Shown in pieces: positions 4,283-48,951 of a stretch of DNA of 64,000 bases. The stretch is taken from sequence record MF327004. One strand, given 5' to 3'. The notes beneath the pieces are model-generated. The model was not told the origin of the DNA. It saw only the letters and a list, made by a program, of their open reading frames with translations, and made no database searches. A program made the translations under genes and the position numbers. How positions within the stretch are numbered: position 1 is the first letter of the stretch; each line of letters starts with the position of its first letter. The DNA comes from Shigella phage Sf17.

Positions 4283-4789
4283 CTAAAATTTTAGGTTGCA
4301 TTCTTTACTTACCTCTTCAAACTTACTCTCAAACTCTACAATCTTCTTCTTGTAAGTCGTCATTCTCAAACATGATAGGATGATACCAACTATTGGAATC
4401 ACATACAAGAACCAAATCTCAGAAATTTTCTTCTCAGCTTGGTTAAACGTCAAATCTTGCATGTACACACTTCCAAAAGAGATGATACAAATCATAGCAA
4501 GAACTACAGATAACATAATTGCTATCCCTGCCCATCCTCTGGTGTTATACTCAGCATTTCTACGCTTATTTTCCAGATTGATAAGTTCGTTATAGTCGGC
4601 TGAGAAGTCTCTGTAGAAAGCTTTCAAATACTCTCTGCTGTAACCTTCAAAGCATCCTGTACCAAACCAATTTTCACCTCCGAAGTGTGAAATAGTCCCT
4701 TTATCACCGTTTGCTTTCACAATCTTGAAAGATACATGGTGCTTAGATTGCTCATAAGAAATCTGGTCTCTTGAATCTTCGTAAATCAT
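4283..4789 (-). CDS. putative membrane protein (two predicted transmembrane helices in C-terminal half)
   Basis: Hydrophobic stretches GWAGIAIMLSVVLAMICIISFG and IWFLYVIPIVGIILSCL. Confidence 0.5.
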   Translation of the reverse strand: MIYEDSRDQISYEQSKHHVSFKIVKANGDKGTISHFGGENWFGTGCFEGYSREYLKAFYRDFSADYNELINLENKRRNAEYNTRGWAGIAIMLSVVLAMICIISFGSVYMQDLTFNQAEKKISEIWFLYVIPIVGIILSCLRMTTYKKKIVEFESKFEEVSKECNLKF

Positions 4790-5004
4790 TGTTCAATCCT
4801 CTTTAATCGTGCATTCCACTCTCTGTCAATCATTCTCTGGAATGTCTTACCTCTGGGAGTAACGTTCTTAAGTGATTCTTCAGTACATACTAAGATATCA
4901 CCTCTGGCAATTTTGCCATAACACTGTTTAGTCTTCTTAGCTCGTCTGTACTGCTCAGAAACAGAGAGCTTCCAGTATTCACCTAAAGTTGTAAACTTTT
5001 TCAT
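4786..5004 (-). CDS. hypothetical basic protein (72 aa)
   Basis: ORF with 4-nt overlap to neighbours. Confidence 0.45.
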   Translation of the reverse strand: MKKFTTLGEYWKLSVSEQYRRAKKTKQCYGKIARGDILVCTEESLKNVTPRGKTFQRMIDREWNARLKRIEQ

Positions 5005-5741
5005 TCTTTCACCATTGCGTTGTAGAATTGCCTTTGAATCTCTTCAGCAATCTGATAAGGTGTGAAACCAGCTTTTAACATCATTCTTACTGTGTACTCA
5101 ATGTCATTCTTATTAACCACATGGTCTGTGACACTGATTGCTTCTTTTAACTCTTCCACATTCTTTTTAGCATCTTCACAAGCGCTGGTCAACATGGAGT
5201 TAAATTTCTTTTGTGGTGTAGTCCAAGCATGACTATGTGGATTTGCATCACAGAAATACTTGAAGTAATCTCTGACGTTATCTACAACCAGAGTTTGATG
5301 ACCATCTTCTTTAGTTTGGTATCGAGACTCTTGCTCAGGTACATCTGCAAGTCTGTGTGTAGGAGCCTCTATAGTAACATCAATCGTTCTAACCTTTGGA
5401 GTTGCCTCTTTCTTCAGAGTCGGAGTTGCCTCAAAAGTTGCCTTTTCAGTTTCTTCTTCATCCCCTACCACAGTATCTTGTAAAGAAATACCCAGAATCT
5501 TTCTGAAGCTTCCTGTGAAGGTTAAGTTTTCAATATCAGTGGTCGAATAGACTTTACCAGCCCATAAGTGTGCTTCTGGACCAAGTGATGTTGCTGGATA
5601 AATCTTGAAATGTAATGTCTTCATAGGTCGGAAGTACACAACCCCGCTATCAGACACATACGTAACAAATGCCTTAGTTCTTTGGGCTGGTGAAGCCTTT
5701 ACATAAATGTAAATTGTGTCTGTCTCTTTAACTTTAACCAT
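5001..5741 (-). CDS. hypothetical protein (246 aa)
   Basis: ORF; GGAGAG ribosome-binding site upstream; minus-strand TTGACA promoter-like sequence at about 5775-5805. Confidence 0.5.
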   Translation of the reverse strand: MVKVKETDTIYIYVKASPAQRTKAFVTYVSDSGVVYFRPMKTLHFKIYPATSLGPEAHLWAGKVYSTTDIENLTFTGSFRKILGISLQDTVVGDEEETEKATFEATPTLKKEATPKVRTIDVTIEAPTHRLADVPEQESRYQTKEDGHQTLVVDNVRDYFKYFCDANPHSHAWTTPQKKFNSMLTSACEDAKKNVEELKEAISVTDHVVNKNDIEYTVRMMLKAGFTPYQIAEEIQRQFYNAMVKE

Positions 5742-41320: not shown

Positions 41321-41515
41321 ATGCCAACCATTCTAGCAATCCTCATGAAAAACCTTGGGGCATTCTTTTGGAAGCTTCTTTTTTCTCTTCTCAGTGAATA
41401 CATGATTGAAAAAGTGTTCTTTAAGCTTGCAAGATACCTTGCGAGTAAAACAGATACACCTATTGATGATGAATTTGTAGATACCTTGGAAAAGGCTTTT
41501 AAAGGTGAGAAATAA
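41321..41515 (+). CDS. small membrane protein (holin-like candidate)
   Basis: 64 aa, one predicted transmembrane helix (ILAILMKNLGAFFWKLLFSLL), charged C-terminus. Confidence 0.4.
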   Translation: MPTILAILMKNLGAFFWKLLFSLLSEYMIEKVFFKLARYLASKTDTPIDDEFVDTLEKAFKGEK

Positions 41516-41889
41516 TGAAGTGGCTTGAAGATGCTTTTAAGAATAATATTGGTGCAATCGTTGTAGGTATTTTCAGTGTAATTGGTATGTACACTACAAT
41601 GCAGGTCTCTGATGGTAAACAGGAAGTGTCTATCACAAATAAGTTACAGCAGTTGGATGGTTACTCAAAAGGTAACTATTCAGCTATTCGTGACTTACAA
41701 TCTGATATGAAGCTCCTACAATTAGGGATGGAGAACCAGAAAGTTCAGCTAGAGAATGTTAAGGGAGAAAACGCTAAGTTGACTAAGACCCTTGATAAGT
41801 TCTCTGACAGTGTTAACAACTTAGCACAATCTGTATCAGCTTTGCAAGCAATTACAGAACAAAATACCCAAAGCACTAAAAAGAAATAA
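41515..41889 (+). CDS. membrane-anchored coiled-coil protein (i-spanin-like candidate)
   Basis: N-terminal transmembrane helix (IGAIVVGIFSVIGMY) followed by ~100 aa helical/coiled-coil region. Confidence 0.4.
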   Translation: MKWLEDAFKNNIGAIVVGIFSVIGMYTTMQVSDGKQEVSITNKLQQLDGYSKGNYSAIRDLQSDMKLLQLGMENQKVQLENVKGENAKLTKTLDKFSDSVNNLAQSVSALQAITEQNTQSTKKK

Positions 41890-41894
41890 TTCTA

Positions 41895-41925
41895 AGGCTC
41901 CTTTTTACGGGAGCCTTTTTTGTTT
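41895..41925 (+). terminator. rho-independent terminator at convergence of late operon and minus-strand block
   Basis: AGGCTCC-tttttacg-GGAGCCT followed by TTTTTTG. Confidence 0.65.
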
Positions 41926-42825
41926 CTACTTACCTACTGATAAAGGTGCTTCAATCTTACCAGCATGTTTATACCCTTTCAACCCACCTAGGAAGTCATC
42001 TGCTGTCATATGTCTCAAGTCTTCAAGAGACTTCAAATCTTGATGAATTTCAAACTTAGGTGCTGGGAACTCTTCATTACCAAGAAGCTGAAAAACCTGT
42101 GACATATGGTTCTGGTAGATTTGAGTATCACCATAAGTCCCTACCAGATATCGCGGTGTATACCCCGTCAGTTTACACAACACTTCCAAGATAAAGGCAT
42201 AGGAAGCAATGTTAAATGGTAATCCTAAGAACGTATCACAAGAGCGCTGATACCATTTCAAATCTACCTCATTAGTGTTCGAGATGTAAATCTGAAAAAG
42301 TACATGGCAAGGTGCTAATGCCATAGAGTTACTTGATATATCTGCTGCATTCCATGCGTTAACGAGCATGTAACGGTCTGTAGGAGACTTTCTCATCTTC
42401 TCTACAAGATTACTCAACTGGTCTACAACAACTCCACCATGACCTTCGTAGGCTCTCCATTGGACTCCATAGATTCTTCCTCCAGCGTCCTCCAGCCAAT
42501 CATTCTCTGTAGCATAGGTTGTTTTCAACCAACGTTTAAAATCATCTGTCCAGATAGTCCAACGCTCTCCGTCATTCTCCCCCCAAGTTCTGTAACGCAA
42601 ATGGCCTAGTTGGTTTTCACCGTTCATAAACCATAATGCTTCACCGAGGACTTGACGCATAAACGTTTGTTTTGAGGTGATTAATGGAAATCCACTACGC
42701 ATATCAAAACGGAACTCAGGTGGAGCAAAGGTAGAAATCACTGAGCCAGTTCTGGTTTTACGCAACTCACCAACTGATAAAACATGGTTTAAAATAGCTT
42801 TGTAGCTTACATCTGCTTGTGACAT
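41926..42825 (-). CDS. thyA: thymidylate synthase
   Basis: Motifs ALAPCHVLFQIY (active-site Cys) and QRSCDTFLGLPFNIASYA (Asn retained, so dUMP-specific). Confidence 0.9.
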   Translation of the reverse strand: MSQADVSYKAILNHVLSVGELRKTRTGSVISTFAPPEFRFDMRSGFPLITSKQTFMRQVLGEALWFMNGENQLGHLRYRTWGENDGERWTIWTDDFKRWLKTTYATENDWLEDAGGRIYGVQWRAYEGHGGVVVDQLSNLVEKMRKSPTDRYMLVNAWNAADISSNSMALAPCHVLFQIYISNTNEVDLKWYQRSCDTFLGLPFNIASYAFILEVLCKLTGYTPRYLVGTYGDTQIYQNHMSQVFQLLGNEEFPAPKFEIHQDLKSLEDLRHMTADDFLGGLKGYKHAGKIEAPLSVGK

Positions 42826-42826
42826 A

Positions 42827-43372
42827 TTAGAAAAGCCCTCTTACTTGTGGAACATAGGTATCAAACACCACAGACTTATCTTCTGAAGGTTTGGACTGTA
42901 CTTTAGCAAATAAATCTGTGTCATACAAGTACTGGAAGAAACCCTCATAAGGTAGCTTGACAGTAGCCTCTTCAGTAACTTCCTTAATAACACTGTGGAA
43001 AACTACGTCAGCATACGGCAAAGCTGAGATTAAGATATTGGCTCCACCGATTACTAAAACATCTTCATCAATAGAGCTATCAATATACTTCAGGAAAGCC
43101 CCAAAAGCTTCAGGCTTAACTCTTGCTTTACAATGAGAGTCATCTTTAAAATCCAGACCATAAAAGTCAAGAGAGTTTGTCAAGACAATGTTCTCACGGT
43201 TTGGCAAAGGCTTGCTCCCAAGAGTCTTCCAAGTTTCGCTACCCATCAAGACTAACTGGTTAACAGTCTGCTTCTTAAACTCTGCCATATCTTGTTTATT
43301 ACGAGGCCAAGGCATTCCAGTAGCTGTGCCAAACTCCCCGTTAATACCACTTGCAAAAATTAACTTAATCAT
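42827..43372 (-). CDS. folA: dihydrofolate reductase
   Basis: MIKLIFA...GMPWP...LVLMGSETWKTLG...PLPNRENIVLT...VIGGANI matches DHFR core motifs; adjacent to thyA. Confidence 0.85.
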   Translation of the reverse strand: MIKLIFASGINGEFGTATGMPWPRNKQDMAEFKKQTVNQLVLMGSETWKTLGSKPLPNRENIVLTNSLDFYGLDFKDDSHCKARVKPEAFGAFLKYIDSSIDEDVLVIGGANILISALPYADVVFHSVIKEVTEEATVKLPYEGFFQYLYDTDLFAKVQSKPSEDKSVVFDTYVPQVRGLF

Positions 43373-43641
43373 TTTGTAAATCCTTTGATAATGAACCAGT
43401 TCAGAACACGCTTCACAATCCTGTTTGGATGGTAAATAAGGTGGGGTTGTGGTTCATAACTTCCATAAGCCCAAAAAGATAAAATCTTTCCACATCCACA
43501 GCAACGGGTGTACTCTTCAGCGATATTGCCAGAGACAATCTCTGAAACTTCACCTTGGAAGTTCTCACCTCCACAATGGCAGCATTTAACTGGCTCACCA
43601 TCATTCATGTAACACTGTGATACTCCGCTTAAGATTTTCAT
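43369..43641 (-). CDS. zinc-ribbon-like Cys-rich small protein
   Basis: Paired Cys clusters CCHCGG and CCGCG about 30 residues apart. Confidence 0.45.
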   Translation of the reverse strand: MKILSGVSQCYMNDGEPVKCCHCGGENFQGEVSEIVSGNIAEEYTRCCGCGKILSFWAYGSYEPQPHLIYHPNRIVKRVLNWFIIKGFTK

Positions 43642-44153
43642 TTTTTGTTTACCTTAAAAGTGCGTTCAAATTTTAGTATGAAATCAAGGTCATCAACTTC
43701 ACTTGACAGGAAGTCTTCAAAGTGTTTTGGAACAAAGTCTAAGAAACTCATAGAACCAAAATCACCTGTCAGCTTGATAGTGCCTTGTTCACACTCAGCA
43801 GTTACTACATGACCACCTTCAGTTTGCTTAACAATCTCTACAATATCAGCTATGAAGATGTTTAGCAATGCTTTAAAACTTCTTGGATACTGTGTATCTG
43901 AGTACAGTTCAATACTTGGCTCAAGATTAACTTCAATAGAACGACTATCCCGTAGCTCTGGAGTAAATAAGTGAGCAGGAAGAACACACAGAGAATCAGC
44001 AGTGTCTTCATCAATGAACTCAATAGTTCCTGCATCATAGTTAGTGTCAATCAAGAATGTCTTCTCAGTATGATTTGTGGACTTCATATGCTCAGACAAC
44101 ATTGATTTCAAGAACTCTGCTTCAGGCTGGCAAAGGGTAATTCCAATTTTCAT
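43638..44153 (-). CDS. hypothetical protein (171 aa)
   Basis: ORF with 4-nt overlaps to neighbours. Confidence 0.5.
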   Translation of the reverse strand: MKIGITLCQPEAEFLKSMLSEHMKSTNHTEKTFLIDTNYDAGTIEFIDEDTADSLCVLPAHLFTPELRDSRSIEVNLEPSIELYSDTQYPRSFKALLNIFIADIVEIVKQTEGGHVVTAECEQGTIKLTGDFGSMSFLDFVPKHFEDFLSSEVDDLDFILKFERTFKVNKK

Positions 44154-44154
44154 G

Positions 44155-44658
44155 TTAAACCTCTACAAAAGTATCTTTGTCATTATCGTACTTGAAGAAT
44201 TTTATACACTTTTGTGTCTTCCAGTCAACCTTTTCATCATAAGCAAGACCTTTTGCTACACGCTTTCCAATGGTCTGTATAATGATTTCACGGAGTTTTT
44301 CATATTCCTTCCAAGCTCTTGATACAACAGTTAGGTTATATTTGCGATAACTTTCAACAGATTGTTCGTTATAGCGTATCTCCATAGGGCTTGCAGGCTT
44401 GTACAGATGGGGTAGTAAATCCCAACCCATATGCCCTTCTTCTTTGGCTAGTTCTAGTTGGTGAAGATATTCATTCAACCGTCCATCTTCCTCAAGCCAC
44501 CTGTGAAGTGTCTGCAAGCCTAAGATATTGTTGTTAAAGTGTGATGCACGTTTCACAGAACCTAAATCACAACGATAATCTGACTTTGGTAGTGATAGTA
44601 TACTGCCTTGCAATACACTGTACCCAAAGTATAAATCGAGTTTTAAGGGAAGAGACAT
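44155..44658 (-). CDS. hypothetical protein (167 aa)
   Basis: ORF in minus-strand block. Confidence 0.5.
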   Translation of the reverse strand: MSLPLKLDLYFGYSVLQGSILSLPKSDYRCDLGSVKRASHFNNNILGLQTLHRWLEEDGRLNEYLHQLELAKEEGHMGWDLLPHLYKPASPMEIRYNEQSVESYRKYNLTVVSRAWKEYEKLREIIIQTIGKRVAKGLAYDEKVDWKTQKCIKFFKYDNDKDTFVEV

Positions 44659-45002
44659 TTGATATCCTCATTTTTAAACACAAAAGTTGTATAGTTGTGA
44701 CCATCAACATCTAACCAGACAGCCTTGACTTCAACACCATCTAGGTTCTCTGACAACTCTTTGATGAAGTGGTCTCGCACCTTTTTAGCACTTGTAGTTT
44801 CAAGTTTGATGTTAGAGATTGCAGAGCCAATTGCCATATAACCTCTTACACGATTTGCTTCAGTATGCTTCATACCACCAGTTGTGTAAACCTCTTTCAA
44901 GGTCTCCAGAATTGCATTACCATAAAGCTTCTCTGCTGGAGTTGGTTTACCATAGAAGCCAATTGCAAAGTTATCGTTAAAGATTGCATTTTCACGTTTC
45001 AT
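44643..45002 (-). CDS. hypothetical protein (119 aa)
   Basis: ORF in minus-strand block. Confidence 0.45.
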   Translation of the reverse strand: MKRENAIFNDNFAIGFYGKPTPAEKLYGNAILETLKEVYTTGGMKHTEANRVRGYMAIGSAISNIKLETTSAKKVRDHFIKELSENLDGVEVKAVWLDVDGHNYTTFVFKNEDIKCLFP

Positions 45003-45003
45003 A

Positions 45004-45303
45004 TTAATCTGCCAGCCTTAAGTTAAAGTTTACACCAAGTTTTGTACAAGCATTAAGCATGTACTCTAAAGAAATCTTTTGAGGGTCGTTAATGATATTT
45101 GACACACGACTCTGTGAGATTTCACAAACAGTTGCTACTTGAGCCTGAGAAAGTTTTAGCTTCTCAATCTCTTTAGAGAATCTGAAAGATACAAAATCTT
45201 TCATCTCTTCTATATCCATTGGACAGATATAACTCTCCATTTCCGCCTCTCTATCAGCCTCCCAAGAATCTTGAGGTGCATATGGGTCAAAGACTTCATT
45301 CAT
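45004..45303 (-). CDS. putative helix-turn-helix DNA-binding protein
   Basis: C-terminal segment LSQAQVATVCEISQSRVSNIIN resembles XRE-type helix-turn-helix. Confidence 0.4.
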   Translation of the reverse strand: MNEVFDPYAPQDSWEADREAEMESYICPMDIEEMKDFVSFRFSKEIEKLKLSQAQVATVCEISQSRVSNIINDPQKISLEYMLNACTKLGVNFNLRLAD

Positions 45304-45499
45304 CTTTCTTTCTCCGTTTTCGAGAAGTGTCTATTAACGAATCAAGATTAGTTGCTCTGACGTTTTCACGAGTCCCATTGATGTAGTTATCTAAAGACTC
45401 TACAACGGTTGAATAATCACTTGCCCAAACTCTGTAAATAACTACTCCGTCATCATCGACTACTTCACCGTAGTCTACTCTACAGATGTTCTTCTTCAT
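45296..45499 (-). CDS. hypothetical protein (67 aa)
   Basis: ORF overlapping start of the HTH gene. Confidence 0.4.
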   Translation of the reverse strand: MKKNICRVDYGEVVDDDGVVIYRVWASDYSTVVESLDNYINGTRENVRATNLDSLIDTSRKRRKKDE

Positions 45500-45501
45500 G
45501 A

Positions 45502-45882
45502 TTATAAACCCATGCAGTGACGATTTTCAATAAAGTATTGAACACCTTTGAAAGACTCACGCATAAAATTATCTTTCACATCTTCTACAGTTTCGATACC
45601 TTTACTATCAAGAAGGTCAACGTTCTGAGTAACCATCTCATCTGCTAATCTGTCATAGTAATCTCCCATAAAATGGTAGTTGTAGTCAACCATCTTATCA
45701 GTCATTTCTTGAACAGTCTGAGCAGATAACGGTTTAGTTAACTCTCCAGCATTTGATGCAATTTTCTGTACAATCTTACAAGATTCTAAAGCAACACCAC
45801 TAAAGTTTGCTTCAGGCATCTTCATAGCTGCTGCACTAAAACTCATACCAAGAGCAATGATACCAACAAGTAACTTTTTCAT
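45502..45882 (-). CDS. secreted/periplasmic protein with Sec signal peptide
   Basis: N-terminus MKKLLVGIIALGMSFSAAA with predicted cleavage after AAA; two Cys in mature part. Confidence 0.55.
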   Translation of the reverse strand: MKKLLVGIIALGMSFSAAAMKMPEANFSGVALESCKIVQKIASNAGELTKPLSAQTVQEMTDKMVDYNYHFMGDYYDRLADEMVTQNVDLLDSKGIETVEDVKDNFMRESFKGVQYFIENRHCMGL

Positions 45883-46239
45883 AACTACCTCCTATATAAA
45901 ATTTTGTATACATTTGAGTATAAAAATAAGCTATAACACCTGACTTGTCAACAGATTTTATAGCTTATTTGGCAGATTTTTTATAAGGCTACTGCCATCC
46001 TTCCGCACCCGACCTGACCTCGCCCAACCTTACCTGACTGAACCACACCCGACCAAACATCACTTAAAAACCCTTTTCAAAGACTCTTAAGTGATGTAAT
46101 CGAATTTTTATGTAGCTCCGATTAACTACCCATACCTAACCCCACCTTGCCACACCGAACCAGACCAAACCCAGCCTCATTAAAAGACCCTTTTAAAGAC
46201 CTTTTAAAAAGGAGCCTCCGAAGAGGCTACCTAGTCAAC
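45883..46239. repeat. structured non-coding region A (C/A-rich tracts plus three hairpins)
   Basis: Shares with region B: 10-bp-stem hairpin CATCACTTAA...TTAAGTGATG, hairpin with conserved loop ttttaatgtagc and 3-prime AACTACCC, AT-stem hairpin TTAAAAG-acccttttaaagac-CTTTTAA, and ACC-rich tracts. Confidence 0.6.
46211..46232 (-). terminator. rho-independent terminator (minus strand) after gene 46240-46680
   Basis: Minus strand AGCCTC-ttcg-GAGGCT followed by CCTTTTT. Confidence 0.55.
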
Positions 46240-46680
46240 TTAGAAAGGTTTTCTACGTTGCTTGTTAATGTTAGCTTTCATGGCAGCTAAATGGTTTTGC
46301 TGTTCAATCAGTCGTGAACGTTCTTGATGACTAAGTACCATAGTGTTCACATTCTCAATCGCTTGAGTGGCTTGTTTTAAAGCACGACCAATCTTACTAG
46401 ACATTTTACGTTTTGCAATAGTTGCTTGATGTTTAGGTTCCACCACACGATAACCAACACCCATTGAAGTGACCAGATAAATCTTCTCTTCTTTAAGAAG
46501 CTTCTCAATAAACTTCTCAAGTCGATTTAGGCGTGTAAGTGCGTAAGCTTTCATTTCATCTTCGTACTTAACAATGTCACCTTGATAAGTCGGCTTCACA
46601 ATACCTAAGAAGGTGTCCATCTCAGAGTGTGATACAGTATCACCGTAACTGAACTTTGCTGCTAATGCTTTTGTATTCAT
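46240..46680 (-). CDS. hypothetical protein (146 aa, basic C-terminus) in repeat-bracketed cassette
   Basis: ORF; no recognisable motif. Confidence 0.5.
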   Translation of the reverse strand: MNTKALAAKFSYGDTVSHSEMDTFLGIVKPTYQGDIVKYEDEMKAYALTRLNRLEKFIEKLLKEEKIYLVTSMGVGYRVVEPKHQATIAKRKMSSKIGRALKQATQAIENVNTMVLSHQERSRLIEQQNHLAAMKANINKQRRKPF

Positions 46681-46682
46681 AA

Positions 46683-47640
<958 letters not shown>

Positions 47641-47850
47641 CCGTTGGTTTATGCTGCTCAGTATACTCACCAAATTTTCTATGTCAACAACTTTATATTA
47701 AAAATTCTCTGACTACTGCATTTACTACAAATGATAACAGAGTAAGGGCTAAGGCTGATTTGTATGTTATGCTTAACAGTTTACTTATGAAGTAAGATAA
47801 TGATAAAACAACAAAAACAAACAGGATAATTGCGCTAAACATGCTAACCT

Positions 47851-48951
47851 CTATTCATAATCTCGTATAACAAGCCCAACAGGGAACTGTAAAGACCCCT
47901 TACGAGTCATCTTCTGGAACTGAACCGTTAAAGGCTTCCCGATAAACTCTTCAGGATGTTCAGCAAGATACTTTTTCTTCTCGTGTGTAGTTTTCCATGA
48001 AACATCTACAAAGACGTTAGGAAGAGTCTCTACAACGAACTTACCATGACCACGTTTATCAGTCTTTACACCAGTTACTTTAAATTCCTGTGTGTGCATC
48101 TTCTTGTGCTTAATCAGGAAGTAAGAGCGATGACCACACTCATAGAACGAATCTGGTGAGATTGACCGATACATTGCCCCTTCAAACTTGAGTTTAACCC
48201 AGTTGTCATGAGCATTATCAAATTCTTCCCAAGAGTTAACACGGATTGTCTGAACAGGTACAACCCTGCAAGCATCACCGAGTTCAACGATTGGTGAATT
48301 ATCAATAACTTCACGACGCTCAGGCCAAGATTTAGTCTTGTCACAGATATCATACCAGTAGAATTTAAGAAGGTGACGGTCTGGATTGTCAGCATTCTTA
48401 ATCATAGATACAATATCTTCCAAGTCCCAACCATGAGCATAAATCTCCCCGTCGAAATCCTCAACATCTTTGTGCAGTTTCAGCATAAGAAGAACATCAG
48501 GAATCAACTCTACAGGAATGTTGTATACCGTGTTCTCACGAGAATATGCCGTAAAACTTTCTGAGTCAGCATCTCTTGAAATCCTGCAACGAACACCATC
48601 AAGTTTAGGTTGAGCATCGGCAGGGAATACCAGATACTTCTTGTGACTTATCTTGGAAGCATCCTGAGCAAGCTGTACACCAACCTTCTCAACATTCTCT
48701 GCTTCAGATTTTGTGTAAGCATATCCTTTACGGTCAACCTGCTTCTTGTACTTAGCAGCAACTTCAAAGAGAGCTTGCTGTTCAGCATTACGCTCATTCT
48801 TTTTACCGATGTTCTTAGGTTCTGCTGTGTACTCTTCAAACATCATCTTGCCATTTTCTTTACCATAAGTTGTGACGACTTTATCACCTACAGCAACACA
48901 TGACCAGACGTTGAAAGAACCATCTTTATTTTGTTTGTACAGAATTGTCAT
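47851..48951 (-). CDS. ATP-dependent DNA ligase
   Basis: Adenylation motif I PKLDGVRC; 366 aa, similar in size to T7-type ligases. Confidence 0.8.
   Translation of the reverse strand: MTILYKQNKDGSFNVWSCVAVGDKVVTTYGKENGKMMFEEYTAEPKNIGKKNERNAEQQALFEVAAKYKKQVDRKGYAYTKSEAENVEKVGVQLAQDASKISHKKYLVFPADAQPKLDGVRCRISRDADSESFTAYSRENTVYNIPVELIPDVLLMLKLHKDVEDFDGEIYAHGWDLEDIVSMIKNADNPDRHLLKFYWYDICDKTKSWPERREVIDNSPIVELGDACRVVPVQTIRVNSWEEFDNAHDNWVKLKFEGAMYRSISPDSFYECGHRSYFLIKHKKMHTQEFKVTGVKTDKRGHGKFVVETLPNVFVDVSWKTTHEKKKYLAEHPEEFIGKPLTVQFQKMTRKGSLQFPVGLVIRDYE

Follow-up and report, generated by a model that had tools for sequence, protein, structure and literature searches.

The DNA analysed here, 64,000 nucleotides of Shigella phage Sf17 (MF327004; hereafter the window, to whose numbering all positions refer), contains at 43369-45882 a run of seven small genes on the minus strand, which we call p126, p67, p99, p119, p167, p171 and p90 after the lengths of their products. 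Since these genes lie next to folA and thyA, the question arises whether they are accessory orphans or parts of a common unit and, in particular, what the putatively secreted p126 protein might do. An earlier note, made from the sequence alone, had favoured an accessory run and had considered superinfection exclusion as the role of the secreted protein. From our analysis we conclude, on the basis of sequence comparison, that the run belongs to the conserved backbone of this phage group, with only p167 being dispensable, and that it very probably forms, together with folA and thyA, a nine-gene operon extending from a promoter at 45951-45923 to a terminator at 41894-41917. The p126 protein is predicted to carry a cleavable Sec signal and to be exported to the periplasm, where it might shield the envelope of the infected cell from other phages, either by superinfection exclusion or by protection from lysis from without. 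We tentatively assign a probability of about 40% to this reading.

Results

The region of 2,514 bp is 92-98% identical to the genomes of Mooglevirus (Citrobacter phage BSwM KMM2, Shigella phages Sf14-Sf19 and Citrobacter phages Moogle, Michonne and Mordin) and 70-72% identical to those of Suspvirus and Felixounavirus, and because of these identities the window can be assigned to Mooglevirus (Ounavirinae), i.e. to a Felix-O1-like lytic myovirus. All seven open reading frames (ORFs) were found on the minus strand with the boundaries given in Table 1, and they follow each other head to tail, separated by gaps of 2 nt or overlapping by 8 nt (p67/p99), 16 nt (p119/p167), 4 nt (p171/p90) and 4 nt (p90/folA). 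Each of the seven proteins has a full-length family match in PHROG (E 1e-24 to 1e-105), and all seven genes are annotated as coding sequences in more than 25 near-identical phage genomes; in Shigella phage Sf19 they correspond to gp61-gp67, of which six are named 'hypothetical protein' and one 'transcriptional regulator'. Among the 32 Ounavirinae loci compared, the gene order is identical with the sole exception of p167, which is missing from all Felixounavirus loci. Pairwise dN/dS values against four relatives range from 0.05 to 0.45 for all seven genes, the 67-aa ORF included, which indicates purifying selection throughout. The PHROG matches, the annotation elsewhere, the synteny and the low dN/dS together argue that the ORFs are genuine protein-coding genes.

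The same arrangement recurs on L033, a 74-kb metagenomic phage contig, on which a secreted protein, a 63-aa protein, a helix-turn-helix (HTH) protein, proteins of 121, 157 and 171 aa, a zinc ribbon protein, dihydrofolate reductase (DHFR) and ThyA are encoded in this order, with protein identities to the window of 27-56% across the seven genes. The description of the run as accessory is thus wrong for six of its genes, because all Ounavirinae loci that were examined, and L033 as well, where the secreted protein is only 27% identical, have these genes in a fixed order and linked to folA-thyA. Its placement 'downstream of thyA and folA' is right insofar as the seven genes lie to the right of these two in plus-strand coordinates, but they are transcribed before folA and thyA and consequently lie upstream. 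Scans of all seven proteins with the Pfam, NCBIfam, PADLOC and PHROG libraries yielded no more than the HTH domain and PHROGs without function.

Several features delimit the postulated transcription unit. Ahead of p126, which has a strong ribosome binding site (TAGGAGGT), we found a sigma-70-like promoter, and its -35 hexamer and the TATAC motifs associated with it are invariant in Mooglevirus, Suspvirus, Felixounavirus, the L009 locus and the distant phage L033, the flanks being different in L009 and L033. The 5' leader (45893-45922) holds three TATA(C/T)A units with a spacing of 12 nt and, among them, the palindrome TGTATACA, all of which are kept in all genera and on L033. The pattern TATAC-N7-TATACA occurs six times in the window (1.4 matches expected), with four of the matches located at the operon promoter, and these repeats, which within the window are practically restricted to this promoter, represent a candidate operator for p99. 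A scan from 45882 to 41917 detected no terminator-like site in between; the terminator at the far end is common to the operon (minus strand) and a convergent holin gene (plus strand), and another hairpin terminator (46228-46213) follows the gene that precedes the operon. The folA gene is annotated as DHFR in Sf19 and in more than 20 other phages. From the type of the promoter and the place of the operon in the replication and nucleotide-metabolism arm of the genome (DNA polymerase, ligase, folA, thyA), one would expect early or middle expression.

Between genera, a sharp mosaic boundary is found at the start codon of p126 (45874-45882), with an identity of ~90-100% upstream (45883-46010, comprising a vrRNA tail and the promoter) and of 53-70% downstream. 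The vrRNA belongs to a Viral Interference Programmable Repeat (VIPR) cassette next to the operon, which is described below, and the near-identity 5' of the promoter with its collapse at the p126 start codon can be explained by the tail of the last vrRNA, which ends ~10 nt ahead of the -35 hexamer. The repeated intergenic modules may be recombination junctions. Two additional promoter-like matches on the minus strand, namely TTGAAA-18-TATAAT (45501-45530), which lies inside coding sequence and ends 2 nt ahead of the first codon of p67, and TTGACT-18-TAAAAT (44199-44228) within p167, probably reflect chance in AT-rich DNA.

The N-terminus of p126 consists of MKK, the h-region LLVGIIALGMSFS and an AAA motif followed by methionine. 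It thereby combines a charged n-region, an h-region within the range of 10-16 residues, small residues at -3/-1 and the absence of a lipobox, with no cysteine in the c-region, as is characteristic of Sec substrates of signal peptidase I (SPase I). The hydrophobicity maximum (Kyte-Doolittle-19) is 1.79 at residue 4. In the homologues, the n-region, the h-region and the small -3/-1 residues persist despite sequence drift, the predicted cleavage sites being VNA-T, AYA-D, ASA-N and SFG-K (hyphens mark the cut). That this architecture is maintained though the sequence drifts supports export, to which the disordered N-terminus of the model and two invariant cysteines, both described below, lend further, indirect support, and the Sec-type signal that had been proposed for the 126-aa protein is hence predicted for every homologue.

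AlphaFold2, run with an alignment of eight sequences, returned a model of p126 with a pLDDT of 87.9 and a pTM of 0.75, in which residues 1-16 alone are of low confidence (pLDDT <50) and in which the protein is predicted to be a three-helix bundle (helices 30-44, 54-85 and 93-120). The structure prediction that the earlier note had called for therefore gave a confident bundle but no specific fold match to a known exclusion protein: the fold search returned generic helical bundles only, and sequence and profile searches of the PDB with p126 nothing credible. No homologue, even at 22-27% identity, deviates at Cys35 (helix 1) or Cys123 (C-terminal tail), and because of this invariance the two residues probably form a periplasmic disulfide that staples the bundle. 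The loop GEL(T/L)KP(L/I)S between helices 1 and 2 is likewise invariant and lies on the surface of the model.

In contrast to p90, p119, p99, folA and thyA, for which Mooglevirus and Felixounavirus share 63-78% identity, p126 has diverged further than any other gene of the operon, with 33-35% identity for the two genera and a dN of 0.63. A word-indexed homologue search with p126 retrieved Ounavirinae relatives only, and HMMER, run exhaustively on 1.84 billion representatives, retrieved Ounavirinae proteins plus two distant relatives. One of them (P0035) is the p126 relative on L033, with 27% identity; the other (P0037) is the Escherichia coli protein WP_001350217.1, which aligns with p126 over the full length with an hhalign probability of 98% and in the mature region by tblastn with an E-value of 4.6e-10. 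Two long repeat proteins (P0034 and P0036) were discarded, since they had been matched spuriously through the 'GELxKP' motif. On L033, a 180-aa paralogue of p126 (L033:5197-5739) lies directly upstream of the secreted copy; it ends in the same C-terminal motif, YGFKFYVDHKSCTGV, and possesses hydrophobic N-terminal segments that resemble transmembrane anchors instead of a signal peptide.

The gene of P0037, which is also present at L036:6001-6393, resides on a small integrative element that occupies the lafU-dinB interval of E. coli NC101 (L042:9267-9659), where it is located between an HTH/replication-like gene and a resolvase gene, with a large serine recombinase gene also in the neighbourhood. 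In E. coli GB089, there is a larger relative of this element; it possesses tape-measure and baseplate genes in addition, and its slot is empty (L039:7219-8195). As far as can be judged from these sequences, P0037 is a variable cargo gene of a satellite-like element of E. coli. DNA of the P0037 gene region has matches in hundreds of E. coli genomes; we found neither a plasmid homologue of P0037 nor homologues of the other operon genes in satellite elements.

The second and third genes of the run overlap by 8 nt at the stop of p67 and the start of p99 (ATGAATGA), in agreement with the previously described 67-aa ORF that partly overlaps an HTH gene. The p67 protein, for which no relatives were found in Pfam or PDB, ends in the invariant basic sequence VRATNxDSLIDTSRKRRKK, and its gene has a dN/dS of 0.10-0.21. 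The name 'putative heme-degrading enzyme-like protein', given to the p67 orthologue of Escherichia phage JLBYU32 (L002 3944-4156), was rejected for want of family or motif support. In p99, an invariant, acidic stretch of 34 residues at the N-terminus precedes an HTH domain at residues 46-93 (nt 45025-45168), which also the earlier note had recognised and which matches PF01381 (HTH_3; E 2.8e-8, 34.1 bits) and PF13744 (HTH_37; E 3.7e-7, 30.3 bits), in both cases above the Pfam cut-offs of 23 and 27, respectively.

The p119, p167 and p171 proteins had been regarded as unassigned, and no recognisable relatives beyond orphan families could be detected for them. All three are restricted to Ounavirinae, with p167 and p171 being conserved inside this subfamily. 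With 68-73% identity across genera, p119 is among the best-conserved of the seven; a search of 5.8 billion proteins gave homologues from Ounavirinae only, and there is no PDB or Pfam match. The designation of its JLBYU32 orthologue (L002 3291-3650) as 'putative nucleoside triphosphate hydrolase' was discarded, as the Walker A lysine is V or A in Felixounavirus and family support is lacking. For p167, which is present in Mooglevirus, Suspvirus, L008/L009 and L033 (41% identity over 66 aa in the latter), neither a PDB nor a family match was found. The word-indexed search with p171 gave Ounavirinae relatives only and the PDB search nothing credible; AlphaFold2 predicts an internally repeated unit of a helix and four strands (pLDDT 85, pTM 0.70), and the model has no significant structural relative, i.e. 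it represents an orphan fold.

The putative Cys4 zinc ribbon that had been noticed in p90 is formed by two CxxC knuckles, C20-x2-C23 and C47-x2-C50 (CxxC-23-CxxC; nt 43492-43584), and these four cysteines are, together with C10, invariant in eight sequences down to 52% identity. The C-terminus of p90 is amphipathic and conserved. In unrelated phages, namely Klebsiella phage Kpn BU9 and the Tegunavirus phiR1-RT, small early ORFs encode relatives of the ribbon core that cover residues 11-64 with 37-44% identity. The score of p90 against NF047912 (ECs_2282 zinc-binding family) is 15 bits and hence under the cut-off of 37, and the PDB search returned designed or C2H2 fingers only.

Upstream, at ~45997-47630, the operon is adjoined by what is, judging from its components, a complete VIPR cassette of an already published type, which the earlier note had not mentioned. 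According to its description, the system comprises Vipr, which is RAMP-like, the accessory protein Vap and vrRNAs of ~100 nt that are built from GGY/NN repeats and are defined by 9-16 YNNGG repeats, a conserved tail and a position flanking vipr/vap. Following a 1-nt-skip code, these vrRNAs direct binding to double-stranded DNA, and they repress satellites as well as competing phages (PMC13142463, 2026 preprint). The preprint names vipr and vap as the only protein genes of the system and describes a satellite that is marked by tape-measure and baseplate-hub genes (PMC13142463), which the GB089 element resembles by its tape-measure and baseplate genes. The vipr gene, the vap-position gene and the vrRNAs of the window are like those of VIPR type II of SUSP1, including a satellite match under the 1-nt-skip rule: decoded in this way, vrRNA2 (47373-47445) matches the GB089 element with 2/24 mismatches (L039:7307-7341) and L036-L038 with 3/24 (L036:5605-5639), and in a permutation test none of 200 permuted guides reached three or fewer mismatches, the best one having five. 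The target site is located ~87 nt upstream of the HTH/replication-like gene of the satellite and ~400 bp from the satellite copy of p126. Felixounavirus vrRNAs (L018, L021, L023) have two further sites in the same satellite element (L039). The target patterns of vrRNA1 and vrRNA4 had no exact hit in 185,579 genomes, none of the vrRNAs from 33 phage loci hits the p126 homologue of the satellite, and an Rfam scan of 41500-48000 found nothing.

The vipr/vap DNA (46240-47285) is 93-97% identical across genera, compared with 53-73% for the flanking genes, and roughly one in three Ounavirinae loci lacks it. Since the operon is intact in phages without vipr/vap (L009, L010-L012, L033) and since the preprint lists no other protein genes, the operon is not part of VIPR, and none of the seven genes is a component of it. 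The sole tie between the two is the satellite element, which is reached via the homology of p126. Two Felixounavirus loci without vipr/vap (L010 and L019) retain, at ~4560-5010, sequences homologous to the vrRNA-containing intergenic regions, which might represent orphan vrRNAs or what was left when the cassette was lost through recombination of its flanking repeats.

Table 1. Features of the putative operon and of the adjoining VIPR cassette, with their positions in the window
Feature	Position	Strand	Basis or remark
sigma-70-like promoter, TTGACA-17-TATTTT	45923..45951	(-)	consensus scan 10/12 and conservation
p126, 126 aa	45502..45882	(-)	predicted to be exported; mature part ~107 aa
p126 signal peptide, residues 1-19, MKKLLVGIIALGMSFSAAA	45826..45882	(-)	predicted SPase I cut after AAA
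p67, 67 aa	45296..45499	(-)	phrog_4473, E 8.6e-40
p99, 99 aa	45004..45303	(-)	XRE/Cro-C1-type HTH; phrog_1373, transcriptional regulator
p119, 119 aa	44643..45002	(-)	orphan; phrog_4116
p167, 167 aa	44155..44658	(-)	orphan; phrog_9143
p171, 171 aa	43638..44153	(-)	orphan; acidic, pI 4.6
p90, 90 aa	43369..43641	(-)	Cys4 zinc ribbon; phrog_2993
folA (dihydrofolate reductase)	42827..43372	(-)	putatively co-transcribed, 3' of the seven genes; PF00186 on the L033 orthologue
thyA (thymidylate synthase)	41926..42825	(-)	last gene of the unit; annotated in Sf19; PF00303 on the L033 orthologue
bidirectional intrinsic terminator	41894..41917	both strands	9-bp/8-bp GC-rich stem, T-runs on both strands
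four vrRNA units	flanks 45997-46213 and 47373-47629, two on each side	(-)	9-15 GGY/NN repeats, G/T-rich
vap-position gene, 146 aa	46240-46680	(-)	position
vipr, 200 aa	46683-47285	(-)	PDB 36pp_D 'SUSP1 Vipr protein', E 1.4e-129, residues 6-200

Discussion

If the proposed anatomy is correct, host RNA polymerase would initiate at the sigma-70-like promoter, the transcript would cover the seven packed or overlapping and apparently translationally coupled genes and subsequently folA and thyA, and transcription would end at the terminator shared with the holin gene. Within this unit, p67 and p99 may constitute a coupled pair, in which p99 as an XRE-type HTH dimer would regulate transcription, most likely by autoregulation of the operon promoter or by shutting off early promoters, and in which p67 may contact with its basic tail the acidic N-terminus of p99. 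The p119, p167, p171 and p90 proteins would be cytoplasmic and lineage-specific proteins without enzyme signatures, most likely binders that serve in host takeover or regulation. In the hyperplastic early regions of T4-type phages, small orphan genes lie behind repeated promoter/stem-loop cassettes that act as recombination boundaries. The run described here likewise consists of small genes behind repeated regulatory modules, with the break in identity at the p126 start codon, but differs in not being hyperplastic, with a gene content and order that do not vary within the subfamily.

For p126, we favour a role as a periplasmic binding protein or inhibitor that would protect the envelope of the infected cell. 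Early phage proteins that are located in the envelope and block DNA entry or the receptor for later phages are exemplified by T4 Imm and T5 Llp. The former is an inner-membrane protein and the latter a lipoprotein, whereas p126 has no second hydrophobic segment and no lipobox cysteine. The closest characterised analogue is T4 Spackle (Sp, gp61.3), an early periplasmic helical bundle of 75 aa with a signal peptide and a Cys29-Cys81 disulfide, which inhibits the gp5 tail lysozyme of a superinfecting phage (PMC7677548). Like Spackle, p126 is the predicted product of an early gene with an export signal and a small helical periplasmic bundle, and in both cases a disulfide, which for p126 (Cys35/Cys123) is probable, links the first helix to the C-terminal end. 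The logic of p126 would hence be that of Spackle, but it would be carried out by an unrelated sequence, as p126 shows neither sequence nor specific structural homology to it. Its early, promoter-proximal position, its predicted export, the probably disulfide-stapled bundle, the rapid divergence and the copy in the cargo slot of a satellite together form a profile that points to competition between mobile elements at the envelope. The vrRNA matches in the same family of satellite-like elements also speak for an evolution of p126 under conflict.

A more far-reaching, and in our view rather unlikely, version of this idea would be that p126 and its relatives serve in the periplasm as a weapon or shield in a three-way conflict that involves Ounavirinae helpers, their satellites in E. 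coli and competing phages. The diverged copies of p126 that the helper and the satellite each carry would then block or license the DNA entry of Ounavirinae-type virions by binding the tail tip or a periplasmic host component, and p126 would represent a class of secreted exclusion factors that is new and distinct from Spackle.

Several findings weigh against the operon and shielding readings and have to be considered here. Part of the conservation upstream of p126 is accounted for by the adjacent mobile VIPR cassette, and promoter-like sites are not enriched in the region (18 compared with 14.1 ± 4.1 in shuffled sequence), so that the argument for the promoter rests on its conservation and not on the scan. 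Neither homology nor a specific fold match to any known exclusion protein could be detected for p126, and its presence throughout the subfamily would fit a housekeeping role, too. Ten tape-measure, baseplate and fibre proteins, three of which have no match at all, revealed no lysozyme or peptidoglycan-hydrolase domain in a Pfam scan, and a target of the Spackle type is therefore not evident. Lastly, literature searches yielded no functional data on the seven genes and no transcriptome for this phage group.

The main rival, which we consider possible though clearly less probable than protection from other phages, is that p126 is exported but acts on a component of the host's periplasm or envelope, either by inhibiting a nuclease, protease or murein hydrolase or by blocking an envelope defence or stress response. 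It draws on the same export evidence, its presence in every Ounavirinae genome examined would suit a function needed in each infection, and the invariant GEL(T/L)KP(L/I)S loop suggests a fixed binding partner. However, rapid divergence between genera with closely related hosts and a copy in the cargo slot of a satellite are more typical of conflict between mobile elements, and PDB searches gave no similarity to the periplasmic inhibitors Ivy, PliC and MliC. One could also imagine a lysis-related membrane protein of the i-spanin or antiholin-like signal-anchor type, as the N-terminal hydrophobic segment, the helical periplasmic domain and the two cysteines are superficially like those of lambda Rz, and as the holin gene is ~4 kb away. 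This is very improbable, and a spanin role in particular was rejected: the hydrophobic core comprises ~13-16 residues only and has a canonical AXA end in all homologues, the model is a compact three-helix bundle and not an extended coiled coil, and no ORF for a partner lipoprotein is embedded or adjacent. Moreover, the gene has an early-type promoter and lies in the replication and nucleotide cluster on the strand opposite to holin, and the annotators of Moogle, Michonne and Mordin, who focused on lysis, left it hypothetical.

Two further alternatives, both of which we regard as improbable, concern the run as a whole and its regulator. The seven genes might be individually dispensable orphans without coherent function that merely share a promoter with folA-thyA, a notion to which the lack of a family or fold assignment for five of the seven proteins and the clean loss of p167 in Felixounavirus lend some support. 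Yet order and content are kept down to 27-56% protein identity, dN/dS is consistently low and the conserved overlaps point to maintained co-expression. Alternatively, p67/p99 could derive from a toxin-antitoxin (TA) module, with p99 serving by its acidic N-terminus as a HigA/HipB-like antitoxin decoy against abortive-infection toxins of the host. A small upstream gene that overlaps an HTH gene is reminiscent of the order in higBA, the 34 N-terminal residues are invariant, HigA2-type antitoxins also have an N-terminal extension before the HTH, and p99 is, generic hits aside, matched best by HTH families of antitoxins (PF13744 with 30.3 bits, TIGR02607 with E 2e-5, Y4mF/HipB), next to weak profile matches (E 1e-3 to 0.1) to PDB entry 2a6c, HigA2 (7ewc), HipB and PezA. 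On the other hand, p99 stays below every curated NCBIfam antitoxin cut-off (TIGR02607 HigA 24.3 vs 47.7; TIGR03070 22.7 vs 71.65; PRK09726 14.8 vs 79), PADLOC yields generic HTH hits only, and XRE HTH domains are common to many regulators outside TA systems. As a cognate toxin, p67 would be short with its 67 aa, and searches of Pfam, NCBIfam, PADLOC and PDB revealed no resemblance of p67 to RelE, HigB or other toxins. In its C-terminal 50 residues, p99 fits XRE/Cro-C1 regulators, with both Pfam matches above cut-off, and it differs from HigA2/HipB antitoxins by its scores below the equivalog cut-offs, the lack of a recognisable toxin partner, the strongly conserved acidic extension and its occurrence in a strictly lytic phage.

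Overall, the locus is a conserved early operon of lineage-specific small genes with a probable periplasmic effector and an XRE regulator, and in this respect contains nothing beyond known kinds; the result is a well-delimited orphan gene set with testable predictions and not a discovery. The idea of exclusion by the secreted protein, which the earlier note had brought forward, is reasonable and now has circumstantial support. If p126 is indeed such a factor, it would represent, besides T4 Spackle, a second structural solution for periplasmic exclusion. Its homologue on the satellite element offers a direct handle on helper-satellite biology, which has become newly prominent through VIPR. Felix-O1-like phages are widely used for the typing of Salmonella and E. 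coli, in biocontrol and in therapy, and an exclusion or envelope-protection factor in these phages would bear on their behaviour in cocktails and mixed infections.

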